From Ferroglobus placidus DSM 10642 (GTDB lineage: Archaea; Halobacteriota; Archaeoglobi; Archaeoglobales; Archaeoglobaceae): 32,000 nt of DNA. The position numbers and the translations under genes were made by a program. Positions within the stretch are counted from its first letter, which is position 1. Every line of letters begins with the position of its first letter. Location of the stretch: NCBI RefSeq assembly GCF_000025505.1, contig NC_013849.1, positions 420,001-452,000 on the forward strand, read 5' to 3'. Under the pieces are notes generated by a model. It was not told the DNA's origin. It searched no databases and saw nothing but the letters and a program-made list of their open reading frames with translations. Positions 4,501-32,000 of this stretch are shown here, one piece after another.

Positions 4501-6508
4501 GTCGGATACATCCTTCTATCCGTACCCAACTGACAAATCTGACAGATATACAATGACTCTATTAACGGGAAGACACACGATCAGGGTTGTTGCTGTAGAC
4601 ACAGCAGGACAGACAGACTCAGATAGCGTAACCATTACCGTGAAGAAGGCCACTCCTACTCCGACACCGACACCAACTCCAACACCTACACCCACCGTCT
4701 GTGGAGACGGCAAACCTCCATCAGTCCAGATCACCAACCCACGCAATGGTGCGAAGATCTGTACTGATAACGGTGGAAGCACCGCCCGGATTACAATCAG
4801 GGCGCATGCTCAGGATGCTGATGGAATCATGAAGGTTGAGTTCTACAACAATGGAGTCAAGATCGGAGACGGCCAGCCAACAGCAGCAGGTATGTACGAG
4901 ATCACAACAACTCTTGGGGTTGGAACCCACACAATTAAGGCTGTTGCAAGGGACAACTGTGATCAGAGAAGCAGCGATCAGATTACAATAACTGTGGAGA
5001 GGTGCTACTGTGGAGACGGCAAACCTCCATCAGTCCAGATTCTCTATCCAAGTGACGGACAAACGTTTACCACAACTGGAAACAGCATCCGTGTAACAAT
5101 CAAAGTCGACGCGAAAGATCCAGACGGGATCTCTGATGTCAACATCTACGACAACGGAAATAAGCTTGATGCGTACAAATTCTATGACTCCTCCTACGGA
5201 TGGATCTACAAGGCTAGCTCGAACCTCGGTCCCGGAACCCACACAATTAAGGCTGTTGCAACGGACAACTGTGGACAGAGCAGCAGCGATCAGATTACTG
5301 TGAGTGTGCACGTGAGGAAGCCTATATACTACATCAAGCACCTGTTCTTCGACCTAGGGTCTGCCTTCTCCGACAAAGTTATCGTGAGAGAAGACAAGAT
5401 GTTCGTGAATAAGAATAAGGAGGACATCAGCAGAAATGCAGCATACAAGTACAGCGGCTGCATACCGCCGTATCTCTTCCGGGGCTCTACCCTGTACGGT
5501 GCATGGGTGTACGATCCGGATAATCCATATAAAAAGTACTACTTCGTCACTGCAGACAAGTTCACCACACTGGATAGCGGCCTTATAGGCGCGAAGGGCG
5601 GCTTCTGGGATGCGCTTTCCTATGGAGACGTGAAGCCAGGGTTCCGCTACAAGGACCTGAGATCTATCCTCAGCGTGATAAAGAGCCACCTGAAGCCAGG
5701 ATACAAGTGGGATGTTGAGGGATGGGGCGATGAACCGCAGGTTAAGCTCTGGGTAAATAAATTCTCAGTGCCGCCAATCCTTGTTATAGAGCCGATAGAC
5801 ACAATAGGTGTCGTCAAGGCGAGCTACAAGCTCGAAACAAGGTACGGGAAGACTTATGAAAAGACTTTCATTGACTCAAGCAAAGACGATGTAGGTTTGG
5901 TTGGAGTTGGTGCTCCGGGTACGAGAGGTGATCCGAAGTGCGGTTACACCGACGGTATCGATACAGATCTGATTATGGACGGAAAATGGCATCAGCTTGA
6001 TATAACCTTGGAGGACGTCGAGGGCAACGTCAAGACATACCACTATAAGGTCAGATGGGTTGGATCGTGGAGCAACCCAGTTGAGGTCAAGCAATCTACG
6101 GCGGGCGATACTACATCCAAGGTGTGTAGATATGTAACAGAAAACGTCAGAAAGTGCGGTTACAAGACTGAGGAGGTCTGTAGAAATGAGTTCAGGTGCT
6201 GGGATGAGAAGAAGTGTGGATGGCATAAAGAGTGCAGTAAGCCGTGGTGGTGCTTCTGGTGTTCAGAAAAATGCGAGTGGAAGTACAGCTGTAAGACTGA
6301 GAGAAAGTGTGGCTGGAAGCCAGTGTGCCGGAGCGAGAGGAAATACAAGTGCTGGTACGAGCCTGTGAGGAAATACACCTGCTGGACTGAGCCTGTGGAG
6401 AGGTACAAGTGCTGGAATGAAAGGAAGTGTGGCTGGAAGCCAGTGTGCCGGAGCGAGAGAAAATACACCTGCTGGACTGAGCCTGTGAAGAGGTACGTGT
6501 GCAAATAA
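1511..6508 (+). CDS. Giant secreted surface protein (1665 aa) with an Ig-like domain array and two Cys/Trp-rich repeat modules
   Basis: Uninterrupted 4998-nt ORF. N-terminal signal peptide MKRAVLVLLLAALMLIAQPVSAWG. At least nine units carry the G(T/K/R)HTI(K/R/T) ... D(S/T)(I/V)T(I/V)(T/S)V Ig-like signature. PT linkers (PTPTPTPTPTP) lie at about nt 3370-3410 and 4655-4695. Cys/Trp-rich modules lie at about nt 1718-2125 and 6116-6505. A globular region of roughly 300 aa lies at about nt 5340-6110. No C-terminal TM anchor. Confidence 0.9.
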   Translation: MKRAVLVLLLAALMLIAQPVSAWGAPSISLSPTGTVKTTSVTFTASASDSDGVKSIALYVDGRLSASKTYGSCGYETVKKCGYKTEKVRKCGWKYQKSCTPVFKCWSERECKPKVSCKQSWVCPGLGWLAGKCFAHAPLPPWYRGICNACAREQCTKSEDCHNVRKCGWKQECYTRPTYRCWYENEKRYTCWNEKEYRCNYPHSASLSKTVSLNPGYHSVKVVAADAKGHTSARTFSVSVVEVRPPTVSLSPPGGTFTTSGSSITRTFTATAKDERGVKWIAMYLDGRMVGSRYCYSPTCSLSKALTLTVGKHTITVKAKKDSLWGAEARKDWTVTVIKDVNVNLEYDAKVPYFADKLPVKINLANVPLRAVAKVTVDGEEVFSGTCSGSCNLAVNVPLKGLENRVGAAKSYEMKITVNAGSITITKTRKIEVKRGESFLPGSEITIYIKAKKGIGRVTKFELTYGGKKYDPLQWPSELNEYADKMVEVPFKIRVTKSDDATVTICNLYGCDDKKMKIFTGNVVVDAPPAVRITQPADGSTFTTTSNSYRLTVKASASDDRGVREVRFYDNGRFIGSDPSPPYEVTATLGLGTHTIKAVAVDTAGQTNSDTVMITVKKVGPTPTPTPTPTPTPADNPPTVKITYPHDGDTFTTNNLFRTIKATASDDRGVKEVRFYIDNAFAGRDSSPPYEIQIPFQLIGLYGKPGKHTIKAVAVDTAGQTGEDSITVTVVKVEPTPTPDNPPTVKIIYPHDGDSFTTSSSTYRLTIHATASDDKGVKEVRFYVDGDYIGVGEPSHFQTTPTQAITTSLGIGTHTIKAVAVDTAGQTGEDSITVTVKKATDNPPTVRITDPHDGYTITLANNENSYFLKVTATASDDKGLKSVTFYLDGKYQEAHRWSWPYPTTKTVKASVQITSTGKHTIKAVAVDTTGHTGEDSITVYVKRAEETDNPPTVEITYPRNGDVFTTSGYTYTLTVRVSAHDDKGVKKLTYYLDGTALSDTSFYPYPTDKSDRYTMTLLTGRHTIRVVAVDTAGQTDSDSVTITVKKATPTPTPTPTPTPTPTVCGDGKPPSVQITNPRNGAKICTDNGGSTARITIRAHAQDADGIMKVEFYNNGVKIGDGQPTAAGMYEITTTLGVGTHTIKAVARDNCDQRSSDQITITVERCYCGDGKPPSVQILYPSDGQTFTTTGNSIRVTIKVDAKDPDGISDVNIYDNGNKLDAYKFYDSSYGWIYKASSNLGPGTHTIKAVATDNCGQSSSDQITVSVHVRKPIYYIKHLFFDLGSAFSDKVIVREDKMFVNKNKEDISRNAAYKYSGCIPPYLFRGSTLYGAWVYDPDNPYKKYYFVTADKFTTLDSGLIGAKGGFWDALSYGDVKPGFRYKDLRSILSVIKSHLKPGYKWDVEGWGDEPQVKLWVNKFSVPPILVIEPIDTIGVVKASYKLETRYGKTYEKTFIDSSKDDVGLVGVGAPGTRGDPKCGYTDGIDTDLIMDGKWHQLDITLEDVEGNVKTYHYKVRWVGSWSNPVEVKQSTAGDTTSKVCRYVTENVRKCGYKTEEVCRNEFRCWDEKKCGWHKECSKPWWCFWCSEKCEWKYSCKTERKCGWKPVCRSERKYKCWYEPVRKYTCWTEPVERYKCWNERKCGWKPVCRSERKYTCWTEPVKRYVCK

Positions 6509-6616
6509 GGAAGAGCATTATGCAGGAACCACTACTTAACAATCACACTCAGCCCACAGCCCAGTCCCCGAATAGCAGGTATGTACGGGGTTACCTCGAT
6601 CTACAGACCTAAAGGA

Positions 6617-10629: not shown

Positions 10630-10953
10630 TCACTCCAGCCCGGTTTTCTCTGCCGGGAGTGTTACTCCCTCCTTTTTGATCTTGGAGAGGGCATATTCCC
10701 CTATCTCATCTATTTCTGCCTCGGGTCTCCACAGGCTCTCGTCTTCTGCAAGATCCAGAATCCTCAAGATGTTATACTTCCCCTTTTCTTCAGCATACTT
10801 CCGCGTGTACTCGTAAAATACCTCGATGGCCTTCCTTATTATATCACCCATATCAGCGCTAAGTGCCTGAGAGAGCATAACCAGCTTTGTTCTCAACTCC
10901 TTGTCCAGTACCACAGATGTTCTGCTCGAAACCTTACTCCTCTCCTTCACCAT
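10630..10953 (-). CDS. Ribbon-helix-helix (CopG/Arc-type) DNA-binding protein
   Basis: ATG at 10953 is preceded by GAGGTGA. The N-terminus SRTSVVLDKELRTKLVMLSQALSADMGDIIRKAIEVF fits the beta-strand/helix/turn/helix RHH pattern. The longer ORF start at 11049 lacks a Shine-Dalgarno site. Confidence 0.75.
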   Translation of the reverse strand: MVKERSKVSSRTSVVLDKELRTKLVMLSQALSADMGDIIRKAIEVFYEYTRKYAEEKGKYNILRILDLAEDESLWRPEAEIDEIGEYALSKIKKEGVTLPAEKTGLE

Positions 10954-11070
10954 CTTACTCACCTCTTTATTCACTACTCTTTTACTAAATGCATATAGTA
11001 CTAAGAAATATATATAGTTTTCGGTAGCAGGATTACTAAACCTAAACACTTTGTTCTCAGAAATCTAACA

Positions 11071-11346
11071 ATGGCACTAATCTCTGACGCCACTGTGATT
11101 GTGGAGGTGGGAGAAAGTAGTGGTGTTGTTCCTCAGGGATGGGAAGCTCTCAGACTTGGCAGACCCCTGTTTTTCTGGAAGTTACTGGCTGAAAAAGACA
11201 TCAGGTGGGTAAAAGAGATGATGAAGTACGGTGCATGTGTTTTACGGAACATTAATGACTTAAAACGGGCTATGAGAGAACTGGTACCACCGCCTACAGA
11301 TGAGCCATTGAAGTTGTCTCTGGTGGGCCTTAGTGACTTTATATGA
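11071..11346 (+). pseudogene. DprA/Smf-like Rossmann domain, C-terminal fragment only (truncated gene or stand-alone remnant)
   Basis: The 91-aa product ISDATVIVEVGESSGVV...EALRLGRPLFF...MMKYGACVLRNINDL aligns by eye with the distal part of DprA (..lVvEA..kSGsl.Ta..AleqGR.vfa....LI..GA.lv....Di). The N-terminal two thirds of a normal DprA are missing. Confidence 0.5.
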
Positions 11347-11448
11347 GATTAAGCAACCTTCTTATAGTCCTTCAGACGGTTCTAAAGAGAGTAAATATGT
11401 GAAAGAGATTTTGAGAAATCAAAGAGTTTAGCGGTAGATCTCAGTGAG

Positions 11449-11760
11449 GTGTGCTCCAGCCTCAAGTTACCCCCTACCTCTCTCCCAAACCACATCTCAC
11501 CCATGCCTCGACCCTATGGTTACTCCCTACCGTGCTACTACTTAACACCCTACCATCTCTCTCAAACAACCTCTCCCAGACTACTGTGCTACTCTCTACT
11601 TCCCTCTCTCTCACCTCTCAACTCCTCAACTACCCCTACCGTGCTACTCCTTAACACCCTACCGTGCTACTCTCTATCACCCTACCATCCCTCCCAAACC
11701 AACCCTCCAACATCCAAACCACACCTACCACACACCACCACACCGCATGCAATACCGCCA
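11449..11760 (+). repeat. G-poor C/T/A tract with CCCTACC(G/A)TGCTACT-type repeats, copy 1
   Basis: About 310 nt with very few G on the plus strand. It shares the 19-nt core ACCCTCCAACATCCAAACC (11702-11720) with the tract at 21720-21875 (21793-21811). Confidence 0.7.
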
Positions 11761-12514
11761 GATAACCGGTAGTATGATCTCCGAGGAGAGAGCTTTAATC
11801 CGCGAAAAAATCCCGCAAAATCGTTCTTTTTTCAATCTCCCAGGAGATGCCTCTAAATCAGGAATGGAGCGACGACTCGACTTCCAGCAAACGCCAGCGG
11901 TTTTCTTTTAAATATTTTTTGCTTCAACTCATAGCTATTTAGCCGAATATTTGCCAAGTCCCGGGTATTTTATTCTTTACTGGAGAAGTGGGTTAATATT
12001 TATCTGCAGACAGAACGAAGGCCTCTCCTCCGATTTCGGGTTCTGACAATTACCAATCTGAGCACTCTCATGCCTTGTTTTGAAAATCTGGGGAATGGGA
12101 AAGCGTAAATCAGAGATTACTCCCGCTCAGATTGGACATAAACTTCTCAAATAAAATTAATTTTCGAAATCCGCTGTATAGTGTTTATTTTTGATTTAAA
12201 CAACAGAAATAGAACCAAATGTAAGAAGTGCTAAGGCGGAAAATTTACCACGGGATCGGAGTAATATGAGATAGTCTGCTTAAGATAAGATTTTTATTCC
12301 TTGATTTAAAAAACTCGTAGTGTTTCTTAGCTGTCTCTGATTTGTGTAAAAAGGAATATAATTGCTCTTCCAAAAAAAGAAGAAATTATAAAGCTTTAAT
12401 AAACGCCTCTCGTAAATTATCTCAGATGAAGATAATTTCTCTCCTCGCTCCTTTGATGCGCAAATCATGCTAACGATATATCCCTCATTTTCACGTGCAG
12501 GCTGGGTGACATTC

Positions 12515-12935
12515 ACATCAACATCAACCTTTCAACCTCAACCTCACCTCCATCAACCCCTGCATCAACCGCTGCATCAACCTGCGTCAACCGCTGCATC
12601 AACCTCAGCATCAACCGCTTCATCAACCTGCTGCTGCATCAACCTGCGTCAACCTCAGCATCAACCTCTGCTGCTTCAACCTCTGCGTCAACCGCTACTG
12701 CTGCATCAACCTCTGCTGCGTCAACCGCTATTGCTGCGTCAACCGCTGCATCAACCTCTGCTGCGTCAACCTTTGCATCAACCTTTGCATCAACCTGCGT
12801 CAACCGCTACAGCATCAACCTTGCATCAACCGCTGCCTCACGCACTGAGGTTTCTGCGGCAGCAGGCATATGCAGCAGAGCAGCAGCAAGCACCAGCAAC
12901 TGCAACTTCAGCAGCAGAGCAGCAGCAGTAAAGCG
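12515..12935. repeat. Minisatellite of GC(A/G)TCAACC units with variable (G/T)CTGCT spacers, ending in a CAG-rich block
   Basis: About 27 copies of (C/G)(A/G)TCAACC at irregular 9-18 nt spacing over 12515-12840. A GCAGCA-rich run follows at 12850-12935. The 154-aa ORF here translates only to QPLHQPL-type low complexity. Confidence 0.85.
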
Positions 12936-13357: not shown

Positions 13358-13440
13358 TTTTACCAGGGGTTAATTTACCCGGGGTAAATCAAAAGATTTA
13401 CCGGGGGTTAATTAAGATTTTTACCAGGGGTTAATCAAAG
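13358..13440 (+). repeat. GGGGTTAAT iteron cluster 1 (3 good and 1 degenerate copy)
   Basis: Copies read taccaGGGGTTAATttaccc, GGGGTAAATcaaaag, taccGGGGGTTAATtaag and taccaGGGGTTAATcaaag. All are in the same orientation. Confidence 0.8.
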
Positions 13441-16504: not shown

Positions 16505-16692
16505 GAGGTTAATCAAAAAATGAACCCGGGGTTAATTAAGATTTTGAACCCGGGGTTAATTAACCCAGTTAATTTACCGGGGGTTAATCAAGGATAATGA
16601 ACCGGGGGTTAATTAACCGGGGGTTAATCAAAAAAATGAACCCGGGGTTAATTTACCAGAGTCAATTAGAGATAATTTACCGGGGGTTACTT
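16505..16692 (+). repeat. GGGGTTAAT iteron cluster 2 (about 7 good and 3 degenerate copies)
   Basis: GG(A/G)GGTTAAT occurs at 16507, 16528, 16552, 16579, 16604, 16619 and 16644. Degenerate copies are AGTTAAT (16567), GTCAATT (about 16661) and GGGGGTTAC (16682). Spacing alternates between about 13-15 and 23-25 nt. The extended unit is GATAAT(G/T)(A/T)ACC(G)GGGGTTAAT(T/C)AA. Confidence 0.85.
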
Positions 16693-22329: not shown

Positions 22330-22737
22330 ATGAAAGTAGGTGAGAAAATATATAAGGGTTTTGGTAGGGCCCTTACCAGGGTCCACAGGGCCGTCGCCCC
22401 CCTAGTGGGGGCAGTAAAGTCAGCGCTTGCGTATTTTGTGGAGAGAGTGGAGTTTGAGTACGAAGTCTATAGAACTATTCTGAGTCTTTATCCAGCGACT
22501 CTAAAAGCGGTGTTCAGAGGCGACAGAACAACAGCTACAGAGATCCGAAGAAGTGTGTGGAGGGCCTGCAAACTGTATGCAGCCCTCCACAGCCCAGCGC
22601 CGACGATCAGCAGTCCACCAGCCCAGTATTTAACAGGGTGCATGGACAACACTGAATTCAGAGAACAGCTAGGAGAGCAGCTGAAAAAGGAACTCCAGGA
22701 GCTGCAGGAGCTGGGGAGGGGAGGTGAGAACCAATGA
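22330..22737 (+). CDS. Hypothetical protein (135 aa)
   Basis: ATG at 22330 follows AAAGGAGTG. The stop overlaps the next start (ATGA). The 22213 start in the ORF track would translate the tRNA-like element. Confidence 0.65.
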   Translation: MKVGEKIYKGFGRALTRVHRAVAPLVGAVKSALAYFVERVEFEYEVYRTILSLYPATLKAVFRGDRTTATEIRRSVWRACKLYAALHSPAPTISSPPAQYLTGCMDNTEFREQLGEQLKKELQELQELGRGGENQ

Positions 22738-23252
22738 CCCTCCCCTTAGTTTATAATGATGGCTGGGTCCTCGGGGCCGAGGGCCTCACTCCCGAGGACC
22801 TGGCCTCGAAACCGCAGAAGCAGAGAACAGAGAAGAAGGACGCTTTTAACATTAACTTAGTGATGTCAAAGATAAGCAAAGATAAGGGCAAAAACGGAAG
22901 CAGTGGTAACGGCAGGAACGGCCAGAGAGTCGAAAAGGTCGAAGTAGAACCTCAGGGTACAGTGATTGTCAAGGGAGAAAACGTAGTAATCTCAGAGCGC
23001 AACGGAGCACTAGTGATTCAGCAAAGGTATGTGGAAGTCAAAACGATAATCAGAAAAGTTCTTGTGAGAAGGAGAAGGAACGGAGAGGTTACAAAGGAAA
23101 AAGTAACACAGAAAGTCACAGAGAAACCCTACGTAATAATAGTACCAGCGATGTACAGGGATAACCCCGTTGAATACCTGAAAGCAGTGAAACCAAAGAA
23201 CGGCGGAAAGAGGGTCATCAAGGAGGCTATAGCTCTCCTCAGCAAACTCTAA
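22734..23252 (+). CDS. Hypothetical basic protein (172 aa)
   Basis: ATG at 22734 lies 6 nt after GGAGGTGA and is coupled to the upstream gene. Lys/Arg-rich. Confidence 0.65.
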   Translation: MTLPLVYNDGWVLGAEGLTPEDLASKPQKQRTEKKDAFNINLVMSKISKDKGKNGSSGNGRNGQRVEKVEVEPQGTVIVKGENVVISERNGALVIQQRYVEVKTIIRKVLVRRRRNGEVTKEKVTQKVTEKPYVIIVPAMYRDNPVEYLKAVKPKNGGKRVIKEAIALLSKL

Positions 23253-23306
23253 TTCCGCTTTTCCAGTTTTTTGGTTTTTTTGGTTTTAGGTTGGGAGGTG
23301 AGAAGA
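23253..23306 (+). promoter_or_regulatory. T/G-rich intergenic cassette 1 plus Shine-Dalgarno site
   Basis: ttttccagttttttggtttttttggttttaggttGGGAGGTGagaagaATG. Confidence 0.5.
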
Positions 23307-23972
23307 ATGTCTTCAACTTTTGCCGGAGGAGATTTTGGGTATATTAGGATCCCGCTGGACCAAGGCGCCAGGCTAGTAATCACACATGACACCCTGAAAA
23401 TCTTTCCTCTTGGGACAACCTCCCCTGCCGCACTGGCAGAACCGAGAGCCGCTAGAACAAGGCCAAAAGCCGACACCGTCGCCAAACCCATCACCAAACC
23501 CAGTCCAGCAGAACCGGAAATAGAATCAATCGGGAACAGCGTGGCAGTGGCCGTCAACGGGTTCAGGTTCATTCAGCTGTGTACCGGATACTATCCTCGC
23601 TGCAGTGAGCCAAAGATAAGGATATTCGACTGGAATGACTGGGTCACAGTCGCAAGCAGGCGGAGGGGACCATTCTGGCCCACGTTCCGCCGAAAGGACT
23701 GGGTGCTGAGAGAGTTCAGAGCCCGCACCATGCCAGAGAGAATCAAATTCATGGCATGGCTGGAGAGAAAAAGCGTGTATTCACGGACAACCAGGGCCTT
23801 CAGAATTTACCCGGACGGGACACTGGAGAACATCGACTACATCGGGACGGATTTCAGGGACAACATCGAGGTGTACATGAACAACCTGAAGTACGTGGAG
23901 GGAAAGGAGCTGCTAAAGTATTCACCACTTGTCCACAGATTTACAAAGGAGCTGCTGGGAGAGTCTTTTTGA
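23307..23972 (+). CDS. Hypothetical protein (221 aa)
   Basis: ATG at 23307 lies 6 nt after GGGAGGTGA. Balanced composition. No family recognised. Confidence 0.7.
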   Translation: MSSTFAGGDFGYIRIPLDQGARLVITHDTLKIFPLGTTSPAALAEPRAARTRPKADTVAKPITKPSPAEPEIESIGNSVAVAVNGFRFIQLCTGYYPRCSEPKIRIFDWNDWVTVASRRRGPFWPTFRRKDWVLREFRARTMPERIKFMAWLERKSVYSRTTRAFRIYPDGTLENIDYIGTDFRDNIEVYMNNLKYVEGKELLKYSPLVHRFTKELLGESF

Positions 23973-24027
23973 TTTTTGAGTTTTGGTTTGGGTTTTGGAG
24001 TTTTGTTTGATTTAAGGAGGTGGTATT
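23973..24027 (+). promoter_or_regulatory. T/G-rich intergenic cassette 2 plus Shine-Dalgarno site
   Basis: tttttgagttttggtttgggttttggagTTTTGTTTGATTTAAGGAggtggtattATG. The 18-mer at 24001-24018 is identical to 28486-28503. Confidence 0.5.
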
Positions 24028-24696
24028 ATGGGTAAAACTTGGAAGGAGTTGGGGATTAGTAGGAAGAAAGGTGGGAAGAAGAAAAACAAGAAGAGCGGGA
24101 GCAAGCTCAAACCAGTCTGGACTCCTCCTGCACCAAGGAAGAGAGGCACAGTTGAGGAGTTTGAGAACCTCGGCATGAAGGTAGAGTGGGTTGATGGCAA
24201 AGTGATCATCCACCGCAACGGGAGGGTCGAGACCTACAACAACTTCGACGAGCTGAGAGTACCCAGCAGGAAAGGCATCAAAAACCTGAACGTTCAGCAG
24301 CCCAAACCAAATGCAGTGTACACTGAGCACAATGGAGTTAAGTACTACCTCTTCCCCAACATCAACGTTGCGGTTGCCATGCGCGTTACCTACTGGCCCG
24401 ACGAGTCTGAGGTGCAGCCACCAGAACACCTCTTCGGCCCCGCAACCCCTCAGGAATTTGCAGATGCTATAAGAGCCAGAATACAGAGCGGCAGTCTGAA
24501 CCCGCAGGCCGAGAAAATATACAGGGAATACAAGGAGAAGGCGTGGAAACAGCAGACAAGGAAAGCTGTGAGCAGGGCAATCAGGGCTGTTGCAAAGCAG
24601 AATGGGGTGCAACTGCCACCCAGGGACGTCCCGGTATCCCAAGCGCTCATCGAGGAAATGCAGGAGAGAGGTTTTGAGGTTAAGATTAAGGCATAA
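24028..24696 (+). CDS. Hypothetical protein (222 aa) with basic N-terminus; shares a domain with the 26690-27010 product
   Basis: ATG lies 5 nt after AAGGAGGTGG. KYYLFPNINVAVAMRVTYWPDESEVQPPEHLFGPATPQEFADAIRARIQSG parallels YSIYHFPNLNLFVKVRYETWLTAKGYQPSESSLKKVTPEFVSKVLAAKIEG. Confidence 0.7.
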   Translation: MGKTWKELGISRKKGGKKKNKKSGSKLKPVWTPPAPRKRGTVEEFENLGMKVEWVDGKVIIHRNGRVETYNNFDELRVPSRKGIKNLNVQQPKPNAVYTEHNGVKYYLFPNINVAVAMRVTYWPDESEVQPPEHLFGPATPQEFADAIRARIQSGSLNPQAEKIYREYKEKAWKQQTRKAVSRAIRAVAKQNGVQLPPRDVPVSQALIEEMQERGFEVKIKA

Positions 24697-24744
24697 TTGG
24701 TTATTCTTCTTCCTGTCAAAAGCACTTTTACTGGAGGTGAGGTT

Positions 24745-25443
24745 ATGGACGAGCTATTTTTTGAAGTTTGCTTTGGGTGTTGGGGCCTATCCCCTGCACC
24801 CAGAACCATTATCTGCCACTGGGATGGAGACCACATCCCTGCTGACATGAGCATCAGACTGTATGCCCCATTCTTCCCTCCTAACAAATACAAAAAATAC
24901 ACAAGGAATTTTACCAAGATAGACTTCAGAAATACCAGAGACAATGTGATCAGTACGGGATCTTTAAGGATATACGTACTGCCTGTAACCGACAGAGATG
25001 TGAGGGAAATAGCAGGTGTGGAGCACAGATTCCACAGCTCCAGCAAGAGTGCTGTACCTCTACTGCTTCTGGTGAGTGAAAGCGGTAATGAGTGTGCTGT
25101 CAAAGCTTACCTCTACATTGATGATCTTGACGCTGACGACTTTGAAGTTCTGGAAAAGCTCGTAGATCACTACCAGTCCGTATACAAAAACTTCGCTGTT
25201 ATCGTTCCAGTTTATCTCGGGACGAATGCTCACAAGTCAAGGTATCCCACAGAGCTGAGAGAGCTCTCTATAGGGTTTGTCGGGAAAATGGCTGAAAGAG
25301 GGATAGACGTGTATATAATCCCTCATGCGGAGGGAGTCACGGGGCCTTTCATCACTTCCAGACTGCCCCAGGTTGATGTGGATAAATTACACGTGCTCCC
25401 CAGAATTTACCAGCCCGCATGCAGGGAGGTTAAGGGACACTAA
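24745..25443 (+). CDS. Hypothetical protein (232 aa)
   Basis: ATG at 24745 lies 5 nt after GGAGGTGAGG. No family recognised. An acidic DDLDADD motif follows an SESGNE motif, but a Toprim-like reading is too weak to call. Confidence 0.65.
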   Translation: MDELFFEVCFGCWGLSPAPRTIICHWDGDHIPADMSIRLYAPFFPPNKYKKYTRNFTKIDFRNTRDNVISTGSLRIYVLPVTDRDVREIAGVEHRFHSSSKSAVPLLLLVSESGNECAVKAYLYIDDLDADDFEVLEKLVDHYQSVYKNFAVIVPVYLGTNAHKSRYPTELRELSIGFVGKMAERGIDVYIIPHAEGVTGPFITSRLPQVDVDKLHVLPRIYQPACREVKGH

Positions 25444-25444
25444 G

Positions 25445-25972
25445 TCAGCGAGGCCTTTGCCGGTAGTCTTCGGACACAGGATAGCTGTTGAACTTTATCC
25501 TGCTCTCACTCATCAGAACATACACCACACCCTCCCCCTCTTCGATGTTCACCCTGAACTCGATGCTGTATTTGTCTCTCACCCTCTCAACAACCTCATC
25601 CACCGTCTCCGGTGGGTCAACAACTTTTGCCCGCAGGTCGTCGATGCAGGCAAGAATCTCTCCACGCTCCATACATATCTCTGCAATCTTTTTCAGCAAC
25701 TCATCACTGAACCCAACTTTGAGGGGGACAATTTCGCAGCCATCCGGCATCCCGTAATCAAACATCTCGAACACTGGGTTTATGAGTTCCGACACCTGCA
25801 AAATGCCGCTGTAATAGCGCCTCAGTGCCAGGGTGTTATCCAGAGCACCGAGGTAGAGGGAAAGAGCCCTTGTAAACTCCCTGCTCAGATCTCCTTTCCT
25901 GAATTTGACCGCTCCCCTAAACGTATCCCACACATCCCTGTCAAGCTTCAGATTCACAAACATATACTCCAT
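25445..25972 (-). CDS. RHH-domain regulator with C-terminal domain (paralog 1)
   Basis: ATG at 25972 lies 4 nt after GAGGTGAT. FVNLKLDRDVWDTFRGAVKFRKGDLSREFTRALSLYL fits the RHH pattern and parallels the N-terminus of the neighbouring gene. Confidence 0.7.
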   Translation of the reverse strand: MEYMFVNLKLDRDVWDTFRGAVKFRKGDLSREFTRALSLYLGALDNTLALRRYYSGILQVSELINPVFEMFDYGMPDGCEIVPLKVGFSDELLKKIAEICMERGEILACIDDLRAKVVDPPETVDEVVERVRDKYSIEFRVNIEEGEGVVYVLMSESRIKFNSYPVSEDYRQRPR

Positions 25973-26027
25973 CAAGATCACCTCACAGCTCCAGAAGCTC
26001 AAAAGAAAGAAAAAATAAAAACAACAG

Positions 26028-26603
26028 CTACAGTTTACCTCCCGTCCTGGCTCTGGTCATCTCGGGAAACTTCTTGCTCATGAACACCACAAACGCCTCA
26101 TCTCTCTTGAACACCGCAAAGTCTTCGCGAAAATCCGGAGGATCACCCTTCCAGAATGACAGTGTAACTTCCAGCACCTCACCTCTGAGCAGCTTTCTGG
26201 CGAGAAGTTCCGGATACATGTCGTGCTGGGGCATCGGCACGGGGACATTTGCTACATAACCGCGACTCCGGTCCTCAATCCTGTACGACCCCTCCTTTGC
26301 CCTCGGCAACACGAGCGAAATCAGATGTGTGAGTATCTTCTCGCTAAACTCACTGCCAAGAGGGTATATGTCACAATCAACGAGTTCCTCAAACTTCTCG
26401 TACTCAAGATCGAATACATTAACAACCGAGTATTTTCCGCCTTTCCTGACAATGACGGCTTCATCTCTCATGATGTCAAGGTACATCTGCAGAGCCTTTT
26501 CAACATTTCTTGCAATGTCTCTCTTCCCGCTTATCGCTTTAATGGCATACCATACATCTTTGCCCACACCCACCTTAACCGCCTTCTTAGCGGCCGCACT
26601 CAT
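26028..26603 (-). CDS. RHH-domain regulator with C-terminal domain (paralog 2)
   Basis: ATG at 26603 lies 5 nt after AGGTGG. VKVGVGKDVWYAIKAISGKRDIARNVEKALQMYL fits the RHH pattern. Confidence 0.7.
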   Translation of the reverse strand: MSAAAKKAVKVGVGKDVWYAIKAISGKRDIARNVEKALQMYLDIMRDEAVIVRKGGKYSVVNVFDLEYEKFEELVDCDIYPLGSEFSEKILTHLISLVLPRAKEGSYRIEDRSRGYVANVPVPMPQHDMYPELLARKLLRGEVLEVTLSFWKGDPPDFREDFAVFKRDEAFVVFMSKKFPEMTRARTGGKL

Positions 26604-26689
26604 TTTAACCACCTATTACTACGTATAGATATAATATTATTTAAAGCTTTTGGTTGGTTTTTTGGTGTTTGTTTGAGGAGGTGGTGTGT
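26604..26689. promoter_or_regulatory. Divergent promoter region plus T/G-rich cassette 3
   Basis: The AT-rich TATAGATATAATATTATTTAAAG lies between divergent genes. The 24-mer TTTTGGTGTTTGTTTGAGGAGGTG at 26660-26683 is identical to 27035-27058. Confidence 0.5.
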
Positions 26690-27010
26690 ATGCCCAAGTT
26701 GGCGAAATCCAAGCTTGTTAGGATAAACGCCGCCAGAAAGGCGGCCAGGAGAGTTGAGAGGGTTGAAAAAGATGGTGAGGCAAGTAGAGGAAAGAGGGTT
26801 GAGATGGATGGGTCGGTGGATGGGCCGGTGGAGATTCCCGTGAACGGATACTCAATCTACCACTTTCCGAACCTCAACCTGTTTGTAAAGGTCAGGTATG
26901 AAACCTGGCTCACCGCAAAGGGTTATCAGCCAAGCGAGAGCTCCCTGAAGAAAGTTACCCCCGAGTTTGTGTCAAAAGTCCTTGCTGCAAAGATAGAGGG
27001 GCGGCTGTGA
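26690..27010 (+). CDS. Hypothetical protein (106 aa), paralogous domain to the 24028-24696 product
   Basis: ATG at 26690 lies 6 nt after GAGGAGGTGG. See the shared FPN.N..V..RY..W motif. Confidence 0.65.
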   Translation: MPKLAKSKLVRINAARKAARRVERVEKDGEASRGKRVEMDGSVDGPVEIPVNGYSIYHFPNLNLFVKVRYETWLTAKGYQPSESSLKKVTPEFVSKVLAAKIEGRL

Positions 27011-27063
27011 GTAACACCCAACCGGTATTTTGATTTTTGGTGTTTGTTTGAGGAGGTGATATT
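27011..27063 (+). promoter_or_regulatory. T/G-rich intergenic cassette 4 plus Shine-Dalgarno site
   Basis: ggtattttgattTTTTGGTGTTTGTTTGAGGAGGTGatattATG. Confidence 0.5.
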
Positions 27064-27372
27064 ATGTTTAGAGTTAAGGAGTCTGAATCCCGGACTGGAA
27101 GAAAAATAAAGGTTCTGGAGTTCGAGCTTGAGGGCCCGATCAGCCCTCAAGACCTTCCCGAAATTGAGAAGATGCTCCCTGAAATTAGAGGTGCACACGT
27201 GCTCGTGATATCTGGCAGGGGTCCGATATGGCTATACTGCGTTATCTTGCACAAGTATATGCACATGTTCCCGGCCATTGGAGTGTATGATCCCAAACTT
27301 GAGGGAGCGGTTATTGTCGTTTCACACACAAGATATGCGGATGTGGGAACAGTAATCCCGATAGATTCCTAA
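27064..27372 (+). CDS. csx3: Csx3/Crn3-like protein (candidate cyclic-oligoadenylate ring nuclease)
   Basis: The 102-aa product contains HVLVISGRGPIWLYCVILHKYMHMFPAIGVYDPKLEGAVIVVSH. As I remember it, this matches the Csx3 family signature (..ISGRGPIWL...H....H.....VYDP(K/R)L...VV.SH) and the size of Archaeoglobus Csx3. The His-to-Asp spacing of 9 residues (H67/D76) equals my recollection of the catalytic H60/D69 pair. Not verified by search. Confidence 0.65.
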   Translation: MFRVKESESRTGRKIKVLEFELEGPISPQDLPEIEKMLPEIRGAHVLVISGRGPIWLYCVILHKYMHMFPAIGVYDPKLEGAVIVVSHTRYADVGTVIPIDS

Positions 27373-27394
27373 CCCTGCCCGGGGACAGCCGGGC

Positions 27395-27437
27395 CTGCCC
27401 CGGGTCCCCCGGCCCGGGGCAGTATTAAGGGGTTTTT
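27395..27437 (+). terminator. GC-rich stem-loop followed by T-run after csx3-like gene
   Basis: CTGCCCCGGG-tcccccgg-CCCGGGGCAG forms a 10-bp stem. The T-run in ggggTTTTTgttg follows 10 nt later. Confidence 0.45.
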
Positions 27438-27545
27438 GTTGTTGCTGGCTGGATGGTCTGGCAGGGAGTATTCGGCTGGACTGGCCGGGTACTCCGGTCA
27501 GCCCATCGCCTGTTTTGTGGTTGAGGGAAATTAGGAGGTGGTAGT

Positions 27546-28475
27546 ATGGAGAGAGCAAAGGTAAGTGGGAAGGAGGTTGTGTTCCTGTCAGGGGAAGGTG
27601 CAAGCGTTCTGGGATATGCTGTCTGGTACACATTCAGCAGGTTTACAGAGCACAAGGATGTGGTGAAGGAATGGTTCAGCAAGCACGGGCTCGCGGAGTT
27701 CACACCGGAAGACCCTCACCACCCAAACGTGTTCAAGAGGATATGCTCCGAATACAAAGAGAAGAGAATCAAGTCGCTCGGAAGCACGGAGGTGTACCTG
27801 CTGGTCAGGCCCATCGACAGGGCGGGAAGAGTGAGGAAGCTCGTCATGGAAAAACGTTCAGAGGGCAGAAGGCTAAGCTATGAGGTCGTGGGCGAGATAG
27901 CCTACGATGAGGGGGTAGTGAGGTACAGCACCTCCGATCCTGATGCGGAGGAGGTTGCAAGAGAGATCGCAGGAAGATTTGAGAGGGAGAAGGACTGCCA
28001 CACGGAAGAAACACTGCGCAGGGCACTGCTGGACATAATCGAGAGGAGTGGCAAGGTGAAGCTGAAGCCATCCGGCAGCGTGTACTTCATCCCCGCCAGA
28101 GATTTCCACTACATCGAGAAGTTTGCAAGGATAGTGGAGGAGATCAGGCAAAGGCACCCGGACAACAGGACGGAGATATGGTTCGCGCCGATCATGGACA
28201 CCGAGCAGTTCAGGGACATGGTTAAGCTGAAGGTGGAAGACACGCTGCAGGAGACCCTTGATGCTGCGATAAAGAGAATGGTTGAGCTGAGCAGCGATAC
28301 TGTTGATGAGAGGGAGAGGGAGAGGAGGCTGAAGGAGATTGCAGCCACAGTTGACAACGCTGCAAAGGTTGCTGACAGATACAGCAAAATGCTCAGGCAG
28401 TCCTTGAACAGGACTGACAGGCTGCTTGAGAGGGCAAGAACGATTCTGGAAAAGCTGCAGAGAGCTGCTGAGTGA
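27546..28475 (+). CDS. Hypothetical protein (309 aa), alpha/beta N-terminal part plus C-terminal coiled coil
   Basis: ATG lies 5 nt after TAGGAGGTGG. It contains KLKPSGSVYFIPARDFHYIEKFARIVEEI and a long charged helical tail. I cannot assign a family with confidence. Confidence 0.75.
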   Translation: MERAKVSGKEVVFLSGEGASVLGYAVWYTFSRFTEHKDVVKEWFSKHGLAEFTPEDPHHPNVFKRICSEYKEKRIKSLGSTEVYLLVRPIDRAGRVRKLVMEKRSEGRRLSYEVVGEIAYDEGVVRYSTSDPDAEEVAREIAGRFEREKDCHTEETLRRALLDIIERSGKVKLKPSGSVYFIPARDFHYIEKFARIVEEIRQRHPDNRTEIWFAPIMDTEQFRDMVKLKVEDTLQETLDAAIKRMVELSSDTVDERERERRLKEIAATVDNAAKVADRYSKMLRQSLNRTDRLLERARTILEKLQRAAE

Positions 28476-28517
28476 GTTTTCGGTTTTTTGTTTGATTTAA
28501 GGATTGGAGGTGATTGT
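28476..28517 (+). promoter_or_regulatory. T/G-rich intergenic cassette 5 plus Shine-Dalgarno site
   Basis: gttttcggttTTTTGTTTGATTTAAGGAttGGAGGTGAttgtATG. Confidence 0.5.
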
Positions 28518-29225
28518 ATGGAAGAGAGTGTGAGAATTAGGAAGGAAGGTGGAATCATAAAAGTAACCGGGCCAATGGAGGTATTGGCCCGGAAGGGCGA
28601 ACTTGTGATTTATCCCAGAGGAGTCGCCGAAGCCAAAACCAGGACTGAGACCTCCGAACCCGATATCGAAATAGTACTTCCTGGCCTCCCCACCTCGGAA
28701 ATAGTTGTGGTTCCAGAAGAGGAGGAAAAGGAAGAGGGAGAAGAGAAAGAAGGAGAAGAGAAAGAAGAGGTAAAAATCATAGAAACCGAGGAAGGCGACG
28801 TACTCATTTTGTGCAGGGAGAAAGATATCACAACTGAGAGATCACTCGCCCTTGTGAATCTGCTTGTAAACCATGACCTTCAGCGCATTACAATTGTGAC
28901 GGAGAAGAGAAAGATCACTCTGGACGAAATGCCTTCGGGTGTAGATGTACAGAACTGGCTTCAGCTGGCAGTTGACATTGCCACAGGCGTCAGAAGCAAC
29001 AGAAAGCATGACATAGTCGCCTTAAACCCCTGGAAAATCGTAAACGACTTCCCAGCCAGCATAAAGGACAGGGCCGTCAGAGCTGCCAGAAAGCTGGCAG
29101 ACAGGTACGGCTTTGACGAGGAGACAACAGGATTCCTTGCCTGGCGCCTCGCTGCAAAGACGCTGGATGCAGCAAGAACCCAGAGGTGGGAGGACGAGTT
29201 CGCAAGAATTGTACTCTCAAGTTAA
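28518..29225 (+). CDS. Hypothetical protein (235 aa) with poly-Glu/Lys insert
   Basis: ATG at 28518 lies 4 nt after GGAGGTGA. There is an acidic EEEEKEEGEEKEGEEKEE tract, and the C-terminal half looks helical. Confidence 0.7.
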   Translation: MEESVRIRKEGGIIKVTGPMEVLARKGELVIYPRGVAEAKTRTETSEPDIEIVLPGLPTSEIVVVPEEEEKEEGEEKEGEEKEEVKIIETEEGDVLILCREKDITTERSLALVNLLVNHDLQRITIVTEKRKITLDEMPSGVDVQNWLQLAVDIATGVRSNRKHDIVALNPWKIVNDFPASIKDRAVRAARKLADRYGFDEETTGFLAWRLAAKTLDAARTQRWEDEFARIVLSS

Positions 29226-29235
29226 TTTTTGGGTT

Positions 29236-29457
29236 ATGAGATTTAACAAACTGCTTGAAAAAGCAGTTTACGGCACCTTCATCTTGCTCTGGGGATACTA
29301 CTGGCACCACTACTACTCCCTCCTGTCATGGTTTTACGATCACAATCCCGAGTGGTGGGAGCCCCCAGTGTACTTCCATGTGGTGGCGATTGAAAGCTGG
29401 TTGCTGATCTCGCTCATTATGCTCACGCTGTGCGCATTCATGCTTGTGAGAAGATAA
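29236..29457 (+). CDS. Small Trp/Tyr-rich two-TM membrane protein (73 aa)
   Basis: MRFNKLLEKAVYGTFILLWGYYWHHYYSLLSWFYDHNPEWWEPPVYFHVVAIESWLLISLIMLTLCAFMLVRR. There is no clear Shine-Dalgarno site, and the start lies 11 nt after the upstream stop. Confidence 0.5.
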   Translation: MRFNKLLEKAVYGTFILLWGYYWHHYYSLLSWFYDHNPEWWEPPVYFHVVAIESWLLISLIMLTLCAFMLVRR

Positions 29458-29526
29458 TCTCAGCTGTAGCTTTCGGTAGTTTTGATTTTTGAATTTGAAT
29501 TTGAATTAGAGGTTAGAGGTGATTTT
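29458..29526 (+). promoter_or_regulatory. T/G-rich intergenic cassette 6 (with TTTGAA triplet repeat) plus Shine-Dalgarno site
   Basis: tttcggtagttttgatttttgaatttgaatttgaattagaggttaGAGGTGAttttATG. Confidence 0.45.
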
Positions 29527-30657
29527 ATGGGTAAGGCGGAAGGGATAGGTGAAAGCGGATACAGAAAGCTCCACAGCATCGCCCTTGAACTCTCCAATTT
29601 CTTCAAAGAGAGAGAGGAGCTGATAAAGCTAACAATTCTCGCCCTGCTCAGCAGGCAGCACATCTACATCCTCGGCCCTCCTGGGACTGCAAAATCCGCA
29701 GTTGCAAGAGCCATAGCTTCACACTTCAACGCAAGATACTTTGAGTGGCTTGTCACGAGGTTCACAACTCCAGAAGAGCTCTTCGGCCCAATCGATTTAG
29801 CAGCTCTGGAGAAGGGAGAATACAGGCGAATAACAGCAAACAAGCTACCAGAGGCTGAGATAGCGTTTGTTGATGAGATATTCAAGGCGAACAGCGCAAT
29901 ACTGAACTCTCTGCTGGCAATAATCAATGAGAGGATCTACCACGACAACGGAATGGTTATAAGGGTTCCGCTGAACACCCTGATTGCAGCATCGAACGAG
30001 CTTCCTGAGGATGAGAGGGAGCTTGCAGCCCTCTATGACAGACTCCTCATAAGGTACACGGTGGGATACATCAAAGATGATGCAAGCTTTGAGGAGATGC
30101 TGAAAGGGGGTGAAGAGTACACTCCAAAGACCAGAATAACGATGGATGAGCTGAAGGTGATGCAGGGACAGGTTGCCGGGATAGACATCTCACGGGTGAT
30201 ACCATCAATTGTGCAGCTGAGGAAATCCCTGAGGGAGAGCGGGATCGTGGTGAGTGACAGGCGCTTCAAGCAGTCCATATCCGTCATAAAGGCTCATGCA
30301 TTCTTCAGTGGCAGAAGTGCTGCAACGATAGACGATCTCAGGGTTCTGCAGCACATCATGTGGGACACTCCCGAGCAGATAAGGGCTGTGAGGGCGGTGA
30401 TCATGGACGCAGTCGATCCGTTTGCAAGGAAGGTGATGGAGTACAGGGACATAATCAGCGATTACTCATCCAGACTGCAGGGCAGGATAGATGCGGCGGA
30501 GATACAGGAGATAATGGCTAAGCTTAAGGTTGTTGAGAACGAAATCAAGGAGTTGAGCAGGATGGCTGTGAGCAGCGGGAGGGATACTGCTGAGCTGGAT
30601 GAAATCCTTGACGAGATACAGTCGCTGAAGATGAGCATGCTGGACAAGATGTTCTGA
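29527..30657 (+). CDS. MoxR/RavA-type AAA+ ATPase
   Basis: ATG at 29527 lies 4 nt after GAGGTGA. Walker A is ILGPPGTAKS and Walker B is IAFVDEIFKA. This is followed by NSLLAIINER...VPLNTLIAASNELPE, which is typical of the MoxR/RavA clade (from memory). Confidence 0.85.
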   Translation: MGKAEGIGESGYRKLHSIALELSNFFKEREELIKLTILALLSRQHIYILGPPGTAKSAVARAIASHFNARYFEWLVTRFTTPEELFGPIDLAALEKGEYRRITANKLPEAEIAFVDEIFKANSAILNSLLAIINERIYHDNGMVIRVPLNTLIAASNELPEDERELAALYDRLLIRYTVGYIKDDASFEEMLKGGEEYTPKTRITMDELKVMQGQVAGIDISRVIPSIVQLRKSLRESGIVVSDRRFKQSISVIKAHAFFSGRSAATIDDLRVLQHIMWDTPEQIRAVRAVIMDAVDPFARKVMEYRDIISDYSSRLQGRIDAAEIQEIMAKLKVVENEIKELSRMAVSSGRDTAELDEILDEIQSLKMSMLDKMF

Positions 30658-30754
30658 TAGGAGTGTATTACCTCAAAGCGAGCTTCAGGAGCGAAGAGGA
30701 GGCAGAGATGGCTGTCTTGGCGAGTTATCTGAGTTATCTTAATGAGGTGGTGGA

Positions 30755-32000
30755 ATGCTCGAAGATCTCCTCAAAATCTACGAGAAAGTACCATACACCG
30801 TGAAAAAGGACAGGCTTGACGACATGCTTTTCGGCAGGCACAGGGACAGGATTGTTGAGAAGGTGAAGGATAAGGTTAAGGAAGCAATACCCCAGTTTCC
30901 TCCATTAGTCACAGACACGTTCAACATTTTTCACAAGCCAGACCCGCAGTTTCTGGATGATAGCCAGATAGCTCCGGAGTTCAGGGTAAACAAGAGGGTG
31001 CTTGAGAAGATTATGAACACAGACACCTTCAGCGAGCTGAAGGAGACAACAACCCTTGACGATGTGAATTCTGCGATAGCCACAGCAATTCTCACGGAGA
31101 GGCTGTACGAGGAGCTTAAGAGTAAACTTGGGGAGATAAAGGAGCACACCGAGAAAATCCAGCAGCTGAGGAATCAGCTGCCAGGCAAGAGCGGAGAGGA
31201 TGTCAAGCAAGCACTCCAGCAGATCGAGGAGCACAGCAGGGCTTTACAAGGCATTGTAACACAGGGTGCTGTCAGCGTTGCTGTGAGAAAAGCCCAGGAG
31301 GAGTTTGAGAAGGTGCAGAATGCAATGGTAGCTCTTGGATTTGGAAATGAGCCGGGAAAACCAGTACAGGTTGACCCTGAGACAGCAATAAAGCTTGCCT
31401 CTGAGCTGAAAAGCAATGAACGGCTAAAAAAGATGGTGGAGCTGCTGGGGAAGATGCGGAACCTGCTGAAATCAACCGCCAAGGCCAAGCCGAGAAAGAG
31501 CATGCTTGAGCTGCACAGCATTACATCCGGCAGGGAAATCGAAAGATTGCTCCCATCAGAGATTCTGAAGCTCAGAAAATACAGGGTGGTGTTCCTCAGG
31601 GACTACTATGAGGGAAGGCTCTTACACTACGATTTGAAGAGGAGGGAGAAAGAGAGTAAGGGCCCGATAGTGATTGCTCTTGATCTGTCGGGATCGATGT
31701 CCGGAGCAAAGGAGCAGTGGGCCAAGGCAGTCTCGCTTGCCACAATAGATATTGCAGTGAAGGAGAGGCGCCCATGGGCCATTATAGCCTTCGACGCAGG
31801 GATAAAGGATGTTAAGGTGTTCAGAAAACAGCCGAAGCCCGAGGATGTTCTGGGGATAATGAGAATAGGAGCAAGCGGTGGGACAAACTTTGAAAAGCCC
31901 CTGAAAGAGGCAATGAAAATTGTTGAGGATTGCAGGGAATTCACAAAGGCAGACATCCTCTTCATCTCAGATGGTGACTGTAAGGTTGGGTGGGAATTCC
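30755..32000 (+). CDS. von Willebrand factor A (VWA) domain protein, 3'-partial (ViaA/CoxE-like partner of the AAA+ ATPase)
   Basis: ATG at 30755 lies 4 nt after GAGGTGGTGG. The frame is open to the window end. The MIDAS motif is VIALDLSGSMSG (about nt 31670-31705), followed by GGTNF and LFISDGDC. This ORF is not in the supplied track because it has no in-window stop. Confidence 0.85.
   Translation, partial: MLEDLLKIYEKVPYTVKKDRLDDMLFGRHRDRIVEKVKDKVKEAIPQFPPLVTDTFNIFHKPDPQFLDDSQIAPEFRVNKRVLEKIMNTDTFSELKETTTLDDVNSAIATAILTERLYEELKSKLGEIKEHTEKIQQLRNQLPGKSGEDVKQALQQIEEHSRALQGIVTQGAVSVAVRKAQEEFEKVQNAMVALGFGNEPGKPVQVDPETAIKLASELKSNERLKKMVELLGKMRNLLKSTAKAKPRKSMLELHSITSGREIERLLPSEILKLRKYRVVFLRDYYEGRLLHYDLKRREKESKGPIVIALDLSGSMSGAKEQWAKAVSLATIDIAVKERRPWAIIAFDAGIKDVKVFRKQPKPEDVLGIMRIGASGGTNFEKPLKEAMKIVEDCREFTKADILFISDGDCKVGWEF

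Follow-up and report, generated by a model that had tools for sequence, protein, structure and literature searches.

The 32,000 nucleotides of the Ferroglobus placidus DSM 10642 chromosome analysed here (contig NC_013849.1, positions 420,001 to 452,000, hereafter the window) carry, at 27064-27372 on the + strand, a gene for a 102-residue protein of the Csx3/Crn3 ring nuclease family. This gene stands apart from any cas gene, in a block of largely unassigned open reading frames (ORFs) that has relatives on metagenomic contigs, some with Csx3 and some without it. We propose, with a probability of roughly one half, that it encodes an active Crn3-type ring nuclease directed against type III CRISPR immunity, and that it is facultative cargo of virus-like elements of Archaeoglobales, one copy of which lies in the F. 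placidus chromosome. That the gene is a csx3 is already part of its annotation, and the newness lies in its genomic context. Indeed, the public databases list the identical protein as 'CRISPR-associated protein, Csx3 family [Ferroglobus placidus DSM 10642]', on a chromosome of 2,196,266 bp. Its locus tag is probably Ferp_0509, as the next gene is Ferp_0510.

The Csx3 protein and its active site

Judged from its sequence, the product of ORF 27064-27372 is a genuine member of the Csx3/Crn3 family with an intact set of active-site residues. It matches Pfam PF09620 Cas_csx3 (E=1.7e-30, 105.1 bits for a cut-off of 21), the NCBIfam equivalog TIGR02579 'ring nuclease Crn3/Csx3' (78 bits for a cut-off of 55.4) and four Csx3 models of PADLOC (E down to 9e-32). 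The chains of the Archaeoglobus fulgidus protein AF_1864 (AfCsx3; 3WZI, 6VJG and 6YUD) also match it, at E=2e-18. A preliminary description of this DNA, made from the letters alone, had pointed to a Csx3 signature in the product. These hidden Markov model (HMM) searches bear it out, and the signature VISGRGPIWLYCVILHKYMHMFPAIGVYDPKLEGAVIVVSH is present, although the segment quoted there as VVVSH actually reads IVVSH. The ATG start is preceded by a Shine-Dalgarno-like GGAGGTG (27052-27058, +), read from the sequence, which ends 5 nt 5' of it.

The predicted fold is that of the family, a distorted CARF/STAS-like alpha/beta domain. The AlphaFold2 model (predicted local distance difference test score, pLDDT, 90.8) superimposes on the AfCsx3-cyclic tetra-adenylate (cA4) complex (6YUD) with a template-modelling (TM) score of 0.80-0.85 and a root-mean-square deviation of about 1.6 Å, and its top 12 Foldseek matches in the PDB are all AfCsx3 chains (TM 0.71-0.85, deviation 1.5-3.3 Å). 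The next best match is the cA4-bound filament of the effector Cat1 (9mue and 9mud, TMq 0.69), and this comparison of a model suggests that the cA4-binding domain of Cat1 may be Csx3-like.

In AfCsx3, the H60A and D69A mutants are inactive and R71A and H80A strongly impaired, H57, H60, H80 and R71 are described as absolutely conserved, and cA4 is contacted by I22, S44, G45, R46 and I49 (PMC7371418). We mapped these residues with a profile built from 155 family representatives (394 clusters, E<=0.001), to which 187 Csx3 domains were aligned. In this alignment, H63, H67, D76 and H88 of the F. placidus protein correspond to H57, H60, D69 and H80, respectively, and the cA4-binding residues are all present, as I26, S50, G51, R52 and I55. 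The comparison with the catalytic residues of AF_1864, proposed in the preliminary description, thus finds the His/Asp set in place, with K78 instead of R71. A lysine occupies this position in 61 of the 187 domains, and the column of AfCsx3 H60 is a histidine in 154 of them. M66 is a one-residue insertion which changes the HxxH spacing to HxxxH, and the same insertion is seen in several other family representatives. In a pairwise alignment M66 falls opposite AfCsx3 H60, as if this histidine were missing. The 187-domain alignment overturns this, and because it pairs H67 with H60 we consider the active-site set as intact, with a variant spacing. We take K78 and the HxxxH geometry to be functionally equivalent to R71 and HxxH.

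Csx3 as probable optional cargo of a virus-like element family

Csx3 genes are typically found together with type III CRISPR-Cas loci. Among the other Csx3 loci of species-representative genomes, 25 of 35 are flanked by RAMP/Cmr-type type III genes, with Cas10 as well in 23, and most of the remaining ones lie on short contigs. The gene order is Cmr1-Cas10-Cmr3-Csx1-Csx3-Cmr4-Cmr6, beside a 59-repeat array, in an Archaeoglobaceae metagenome-assembled genome (MAG) and Csm1...Csm5-Csx1-Csx3 in Thermosediminibacter, and csx3 directly follows csx1 at two of the loci examined (L013 and L014). This association is missing at the F. placidus locus. With Logan contigs, assembled from F. placidus read sets, the view reaches approximately window coordinate 40.66 kb, which is 13.3 kb downstream of csx3, and we found no cas gene among the scanned ORFs of the window (27 kb upstream) nor in these contigs, and neither cas genes nor a CRISPR array in the whole of about 40 kb. 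The earlier remark that no cas, csm or cmr gene adjoins csx3 therefore holds throughout this region, which downstream reaches beyond the window. Instead, csx3 sits in a block of co-directional ORFans, continuing to about 40.66 kb, whose products have almost no Pfam or PHROG matches. The F. placidus genome paper reports a single replicon and no extrachromosomal elements, and the block is therefore chromosomal.

The closest Csx3 homologues (58-67% identity) are all encoded on short contigs from metagenomes or MAGs, and one of these bears the label Archaeoglobales. These contigs carry homologues of the F. placidus ORFs upstream of csx3, then Csx3, then a DUF6744 protein, and no cas genes. The DUF6744 gene (Ferp_0510, 27546-28475, +) is the conserved downstream neighbour of csx3, and a search of 5.8 billion proteins returned only ten close relatives of its product, with F. 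placidus as the sole isolate. The most extended comparison is with a 112-kb MAG contig (L057). From p135 and p172 onwards it is collinear with the F. placidus block, and 15 genes correspond, at 34-65% identity. The part of this conserved backbone inside the window spans 22330-32000 (+), and it continues past the window to at least 37.3 kb.

Csx3 is absent from L057, by tblastn and by HMM. There, the homologue of the ORFan directly upstream of csx3 (p106/p118, 26690-27010, +) directly precedes a G+C-rich hairpin and DUF6744. The same succession, p118 homologue, hairpin and DUF6744 without Csx3, is found on L063. On L062, also devoid of Csx3, a p222 homologue precedes DUF6744, and on L061 a TumE-family gene occupies the Csx3 slot, with HicAB downstream. 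Taken together, Csx3 lies directly upstream of DUF6744 in five variants (F. placidus, L003, L004/5, L006 and L007), in two backbone arrangements (after p118 and after p222), and is absent from four (L057/58, L063, L062 and L061). All nine related contig variants are without cas genes. As five backbone variants carry the gene and four close variants lack it, we regard Csx3 as accessory cargo at a variable slot. The block also draws attention to a family of elements, so far uncharacterised, in the hyperthermophilic Archaeoglobales.

Other small genes vary among these relatives. The TumE-family gene of L061 lies at 114-389 and its HicAB pair follows MoxR at 2746-3229, and MNT/HEPN pairs are found upstream on L057 (3937-4696) and L004 (72-668). 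Such toxin-antitoxin cargo fits the accessory gene pool of a mobile element.

In F. placidus, a G+C-rich double hairpin followed by a T5 tract immediately follows the gene (27373-27437, +). Its main hairpin has a 12-bp G+C stem at about 27395-27422 (dG -45.5 kcal/mol, z = -3.2). At the DNA level, the double hairpin and T-tract 5' of DUF6744 can be aligned in L003 (3113-3200), L006 (2294-2380) and L007 (372-460), and also in the Csx3-less L057 (9900-9990). The same intergenic stretch of L063 (326-400), likewise without Csx3, contains similar G+C-rich palindromes. Since it also precedes DUF6744 in relatives without Csx3, the hairpin belongs to the backbone, and csx3 is placed between p118 and this backbone feature. 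It had initially been described as the gene's own strong terminator: the hairpin and its T5 are real, but they are not specific to csx3. We also observed that the nucleotide sequence of the hairpin is kept among these elements, although their proteins share only about 60% identity. This is beyond expectation for a plain terminator, and the hairpin may act in regulation or bind a protein.

The family tree tells the element-borne genes apart. In a neighbour-joining tree, which rests on about 100 columns and is indicative only, the five element-borne Csx3 form one clade, with identities of 58-73% among its members and of 49% or less to the others. This clade is apart from that of the Archaeoglobaceae CRISPR loci (AF_1864, L014, L018 and L021), so that the F. 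placidus copy groups with element-borne homologues rather than with those of host CRISPR loci, a choice that the preliminary description had left to a phylogeny. The spacing of the active-site histidines follows the same division, with HxxxH in 5/5 element-borne copies and HxxH in 31/31 scorable genomic copies. The whole active-site set is invariant across the five element variants at their 58-73% identity, and the ratio of non-synonymous to synonymous substitution rates (dN/dS) in the clade is 0.10-0.21, similar to that of DUF6744, these values being approximate as dS is near saturation. On these sequence comparisons, the element Csx3 clade is under purifying selection.

The backbone itself is virus-like. 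Downstream of csx3, the DUF6744 gene is followed by those of a MoxR-like AAA+ ATPase (29527-30657, +; Pfam bpMoxR 208 bits, phrog_19600 E=2.5e-82) and of its partner, a 469-residue VWA-domain protein (30755-32000, +, running off the window end). Outside the element family, the relatives of DUF6744 that were found, by sequence and by predicted fold, all belong to tailed viruses. Moorella phage MTATph1 has DUF6744, a MoxR ATPase (41% identity) and VWA in the same order as F. placidus, and Bacillus phage 0305phi8-36 carries DUF6744 and the ATPase. Ribonucleotide reductase is encoded just upstream of DUF6744 both in MTATph1 and in HVTV-1, a tailed virus of haloarchaea. DUF6744, MoxR and VWA together recur among large tailed viruses, bacterial as well as archaeal. 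The MoxR-VWA pair was present on 18/18 IMG/VR contigs retrieved with a MoxR alignment, and on five IMG/VR contigs, as in MTATph1, a stretch of 10 kb holds the whole DUF6744-MoxR-VWA trio. Single-protein scans of IMG/VR with DUF6744 and MoxR gave nothing close. The DUF6744 model (pLDDT 82.5) has no relative in the PDB by Foldseek and matches in BFVD only uncharacterised Caudovirales proteins (E=1e-17 to 1e-11).

A candidate anti-CRISPR function and its alternatives

How would such a cargo gene serve the element? By analogy with AfCsx3, dimers of the F. placidus protein would stack head to tail around cA4. A composite Mn2+-dependent site, to which one dimer offers its D76/K78 face and the next its H63/H67/H88 face, would then cut cA4 to linear A2 products. 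Only the enzymes of A. fulgidus and M. mazei are known to cleave cA4 to A2 in this Mn2+-dependent manner, through head-to-tail tetramers or filaments. Csx3 expressed from the element would remove the second messenger of Cas10 once type III CRISPR recognises element transcripts, and CARF effectors such as Csx1 would consequently stay off. The element might benefit either by an anti-CRISPR effect during infection or by tolerance of a resident, self-targeted copy. Viral ring nucleases AcrIII-1 and AcrIII-2 provide the precedent (PMC7371418, PMC12751052), and the element-borne Csx3 is in our view a credible anti-CRISPR candidate. We infer that the enzyme is active and expressed, that the element is mobile and that the gene acts against CRISPR.

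Several observations weigh against this proposal. The activity and expression of the F. placidus protein are presumed, and R71, absolutely conserved and important for activity according to PMC7371418, is a lysine here and a glutamate in the clade member P0005. The host may moreover lack a Cas10, cA4-producing system. F. placidus is given under subtype I-A only, while A. fulgidus is given under I-A and III-B (PMC12195208), and an Archaeoglobaceae Cas10 query returned no F. placidus protein among the best 120 of 769 hits, a weak negative as A. fulgidus is likewise unlisted. Other papers attribute to F. placidus a type VII system and a minimal type III-like variant, and related Archaeoglobaceae carry type III-B with Csx1. 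If the host is truly without Cas10, the gene is no host accessory, and its action would take place in other hosts of the element family.

Further points concern mobility and viral carriage. We deduce mobility from gene content and from the comparison with relatives, the element borders being undefined. Integrase, tRNA, att repeat and virion genes were not found in roughly 40 kb by Pfam, PHROGs and a repeat search between the flanks. No Csx3 relative was seen in INPHARED or in a pattern-limited scan of IMG/VR, and a survey of 28,114 phage genomes found AcrIII-1, Csx20 and Csx16 but no Crn3 (PMC12409355). Finally, 382 spacers from 11 arrays, one of them archaeoglobal, gave only chance matches to the element. 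In favour of mobile carriage stand the virus-type DUF6744-MoxR-VWA module, the long ORFan run, the patchy distribution and the variable cargo, toxin-antitoxin genes included. Of the integrated element claimed in the preliminary description, the virus-like, patchy and chromosomal ORFan block is retained, and an integrase, att site, tRNA target or virion gene is what the search did not provide. The anti-CRISPR idea is directly testable; the undefined element borders and the uncertain type III status of the host limit the finding.

We considered four other explanations; a role as host off-switch, as sensor or regulator of the element, or as passenger is in each case less likely than an active ring nuclease carried as cargo. 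According to the first, csx3 would be an orphan CRISPR accessory ring nuclease which, far from the cas genes, resets the type III response of the host. Csx3 is normally such a cellular type III accessory gene, and several CRISPR arrays as well as a minimal type III-like/type VII module are present in F. placidus. This explanation is nevertheless unlikely, as neither the best 120 hits of the Cas10 query nor the literature searched gives a canonical Cas10 system for the host, and as the gene belongs to a clade separate from the Archaeoglobaceae CRISPR-locus Csx3. Furthermore, its presence or absence in collinear virus-like blocks is the behaviour of cargo, and the related contig variants are uniformly devoid of cas genes.

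Doubtful, and ranked after the off-switch, is a role of Csx3 as a sensor, sponge or RNA-processing factor, which would bind cA4 or poly(A)/tetranucleotide RNA and regulate the DUF6744-MoxR-VWA module or the hairpin. AfCsx3 was indeed first reported as binding poly(A)/tetranucleotide RNA. It also has an Mn-dependent deadenylase activity in vitro (PMC7371418), cyanobacterial fusions of Csx3 with an AAA+ ATPase exist, and here the AAA+ MoxR lies 2 kb downstream. The constant position of Csx3, when present, directly upstream of the hairpin and DUF6744 in two backbone arrangements could also be read in this way, but overall synteny alone predicts a conserved adjacency. The preservation of all catalytic residues under purifying selection speaks against this role. 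Moreover, four close relatives and every viral homologue found have DUF6744-MoxR-VWA but no Csx3, and the module therefore does not need it.

We find it improbable that Csx3 is a functionless passenger in F. placidus, transferred from a type III locus into the element lineage and not yet lost. cA4 signalling is possibly absent from the host and half of the related backbones do without the gene, but the dN/dS values, the invariant active-site set of the five variants, the intact ORF and its good ribosome-binding site all argue against decay. Most improbable of all is a switch of the element's own, in which Csx3 would read or quench cA4, or a related oligoadenylate of non-CRISPR origin, and so control the adjacent, always-linked hairpin/DUF6744-MoxR-VWA module in a host possibly without Cas10, with for example replication or escape timed to a raised cell alarm.

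The proposed ring nuclease cargo resembles several known systems without being identical to any. With AF_1864 (about 47% identity), the F. placidus protein shares the fold, as predicted, the cA4 contacts, the His/His/Asp/His set and the single-domain size. It differs from it in having HKYMH for HKYHH, the lysine for R71 and an insertion of one residue ahead of the last strand, in its separate clade, found only on the element backbone, and in the location of its gene, outside any type III-B operon and not beside csx1. AcrIII-1/Crn2 (DUF1874) is likewise a small stand-alone virus-encoded cA4-degrading enzyme with homologues in cellular CRISPR loci, and the proposed logic, the destruction of the type III second messenger, is the same. 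However, AcrIII-1 has an unrelated fold and a metal-independent chemistry, is experimentally proven, and is abundant in viruses (36/28,114 phage genomes, in a survey from which Crn3 is unreported; PMC12409355). AcrIII-2 (viral SAVED) and the Csx16/Csx20 of a few phages are, in the same manner, cellular cA4-binding domains 'scavenged' by viruses, and AcrIII-2 also has a composite active site between head-to-tail subunits. These belong to other protein families and to recognised viral genomes, whereas the F. placidus gene lies in a virus-like chromosomal island.

A second stand-alone gene came from a tblastn search against plasmids, which gave four Csx3 hits. One inspected hit, on a cyanobacterial plasmid, has cas10/cmr2 at a distance of about 10 kb or less and other CRISPR-associated genes next to it. 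The 18-kb 'plasmid' of Pyramidobacter sp. YE332 (NZ_CP133039.1) carries a stand-alone crn3 (11361-11645, -) and no cas genes. Its gene content is clearly phage-like, with a LexA/CI-type repressor, a helix-turn-helix (HTH) regulator, a DNA polymerase, VapE, an integrase, Rha and a holin, and crn3 lies two genes downstream of the divergent repressor/HTH (CI/Cro-type) switch. The product keeps the His, His, Asp-Pro-Arg and Ser-His residues, with a divergent N-terminal third, and on this sequence evidence it is an independent candidate for a phage-borne Crn3. It differs from the F. placidus protein by its bacterial host (Synergistota), by an identity of about 44% over the C-terminal two-thirds only, by its HxxH spacing and by its location outside the DUF6744 backbone.

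The two cases suggest that mobile DNA has recruited the Csx3 family on at least two occasions, in the F. placidus-type element and in the Pyramidobacter replicon. The type III ring nucleases used by viruses are so far of the Crn2/AcrIII-1 and SAVED/AcrIII-2 families, with a few phage Csx16 and Csx20 genes, and in the literature that we searched Crn3/Csx3 is treated as a cellular off-switch and not reported from viruses. If our proposal is true, an Mn-dependent, filament-forming enzyme would join the anti-CRISPR repertoire.

Repeats and other features of the block

The window also contains repeated motifs. A 13-nt motif, ACCSGGGGTTAAT, has 23 matches for 0.9 expected, nearly all on the + strand and with an irregular spacing of 11-39 nt. 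They form three intergenic clusters (13362-13435, 16520-16691 and 17688-17858, mostly +), near the gene of a 478-residue winged-helix protein (18595-20031) weakly resembling replication initiators. From their sequence and arrangement, these clusters look like iterons or operators of the element. They are what had been taken for cas-less CRISPR-like mini-arrays, an interpretation that does not stand: a CRISPR array has direct repeats of 23-50 nt and unique spacers of similar regular length, the unit and gaps here are of another kind, and an array detector found no CRISPR array in the window. Being iteron- or operator-like, the repeats add nothing to a CRISPR theme.

A T/G-rich 12-mer, TTTTGATTTTTG, lies upstream of csx3 (27028-27039, +). 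It has three exact occurrences, at 23967, 27028 and 29480, each on the + strand in a gap between element genes and just upstream of one of them, and is probably an oligo-T terminator or spacer signal common to the block. Spacers of the T/G-rich TGATTTTTGG type are seen between other block genes, and T/G-rich tracts precede many + strand genes between 22 and 37 kb. These tracts may be oligo-T terminators or restart signals.

Two of the Logan contigs end at such structured DNA. SRR071437_83 (L002) breaks 20 nt past the csx3 stop, at the hairpin, and SRR3923786_57 ends near window coordinate 17.8 kb, at an iteron cluster, both ends being probably assembly artefacts at structured or repeated DNA.

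The neighbours of csx3 do not make up a recognised defence system: PADLOC recognises Csx3 alone, and the neighbouring proteins show weak ATPase and HTH similarities. No Rfam family was found in the window. Downstream of the MoxR-VWA genes, the block encodes a second ATPase, of the AAA_5 family, and a DUF2201 metallopeptidase/VWA protein, and thus holds, over 27546-32000 of the window and 11229-17799 of L053, two ATPase + VWA-type pairs.

Upstream, the small HTH protein encoded at 10630-11049 (-) resembles phage transcriptional repressors (phrog_876, E=5e-5). Its gene is divergent from a run of small + strand ORFs (11071-11346, +), a layout that recalls a lysogeny switch. At the start of the window, two large proteins encoded on the + strand at 30-1511 (493 residues) and 1511-6508 (1665 residues) have tandem Big_7 immunoglobulin-like domains, with 2 and 9 scored repeats, respectively, and C-terminal Cys/Trp-rich units of the 'KCGW' type, and the DNA itself is repeated at 1769-2109 and 6203-6528. 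The 1665-residue product, as called here, has no matching public record. The two proteins may belong either to the host surface or to the element. The ORF at 12467-12931 (+) consists almost wholly of imperfect tandem repeats of 12-27 nt, with CTGCATCAACC-type units, and is either a gene for a low-complexity protein or a non-coding repeat tract.

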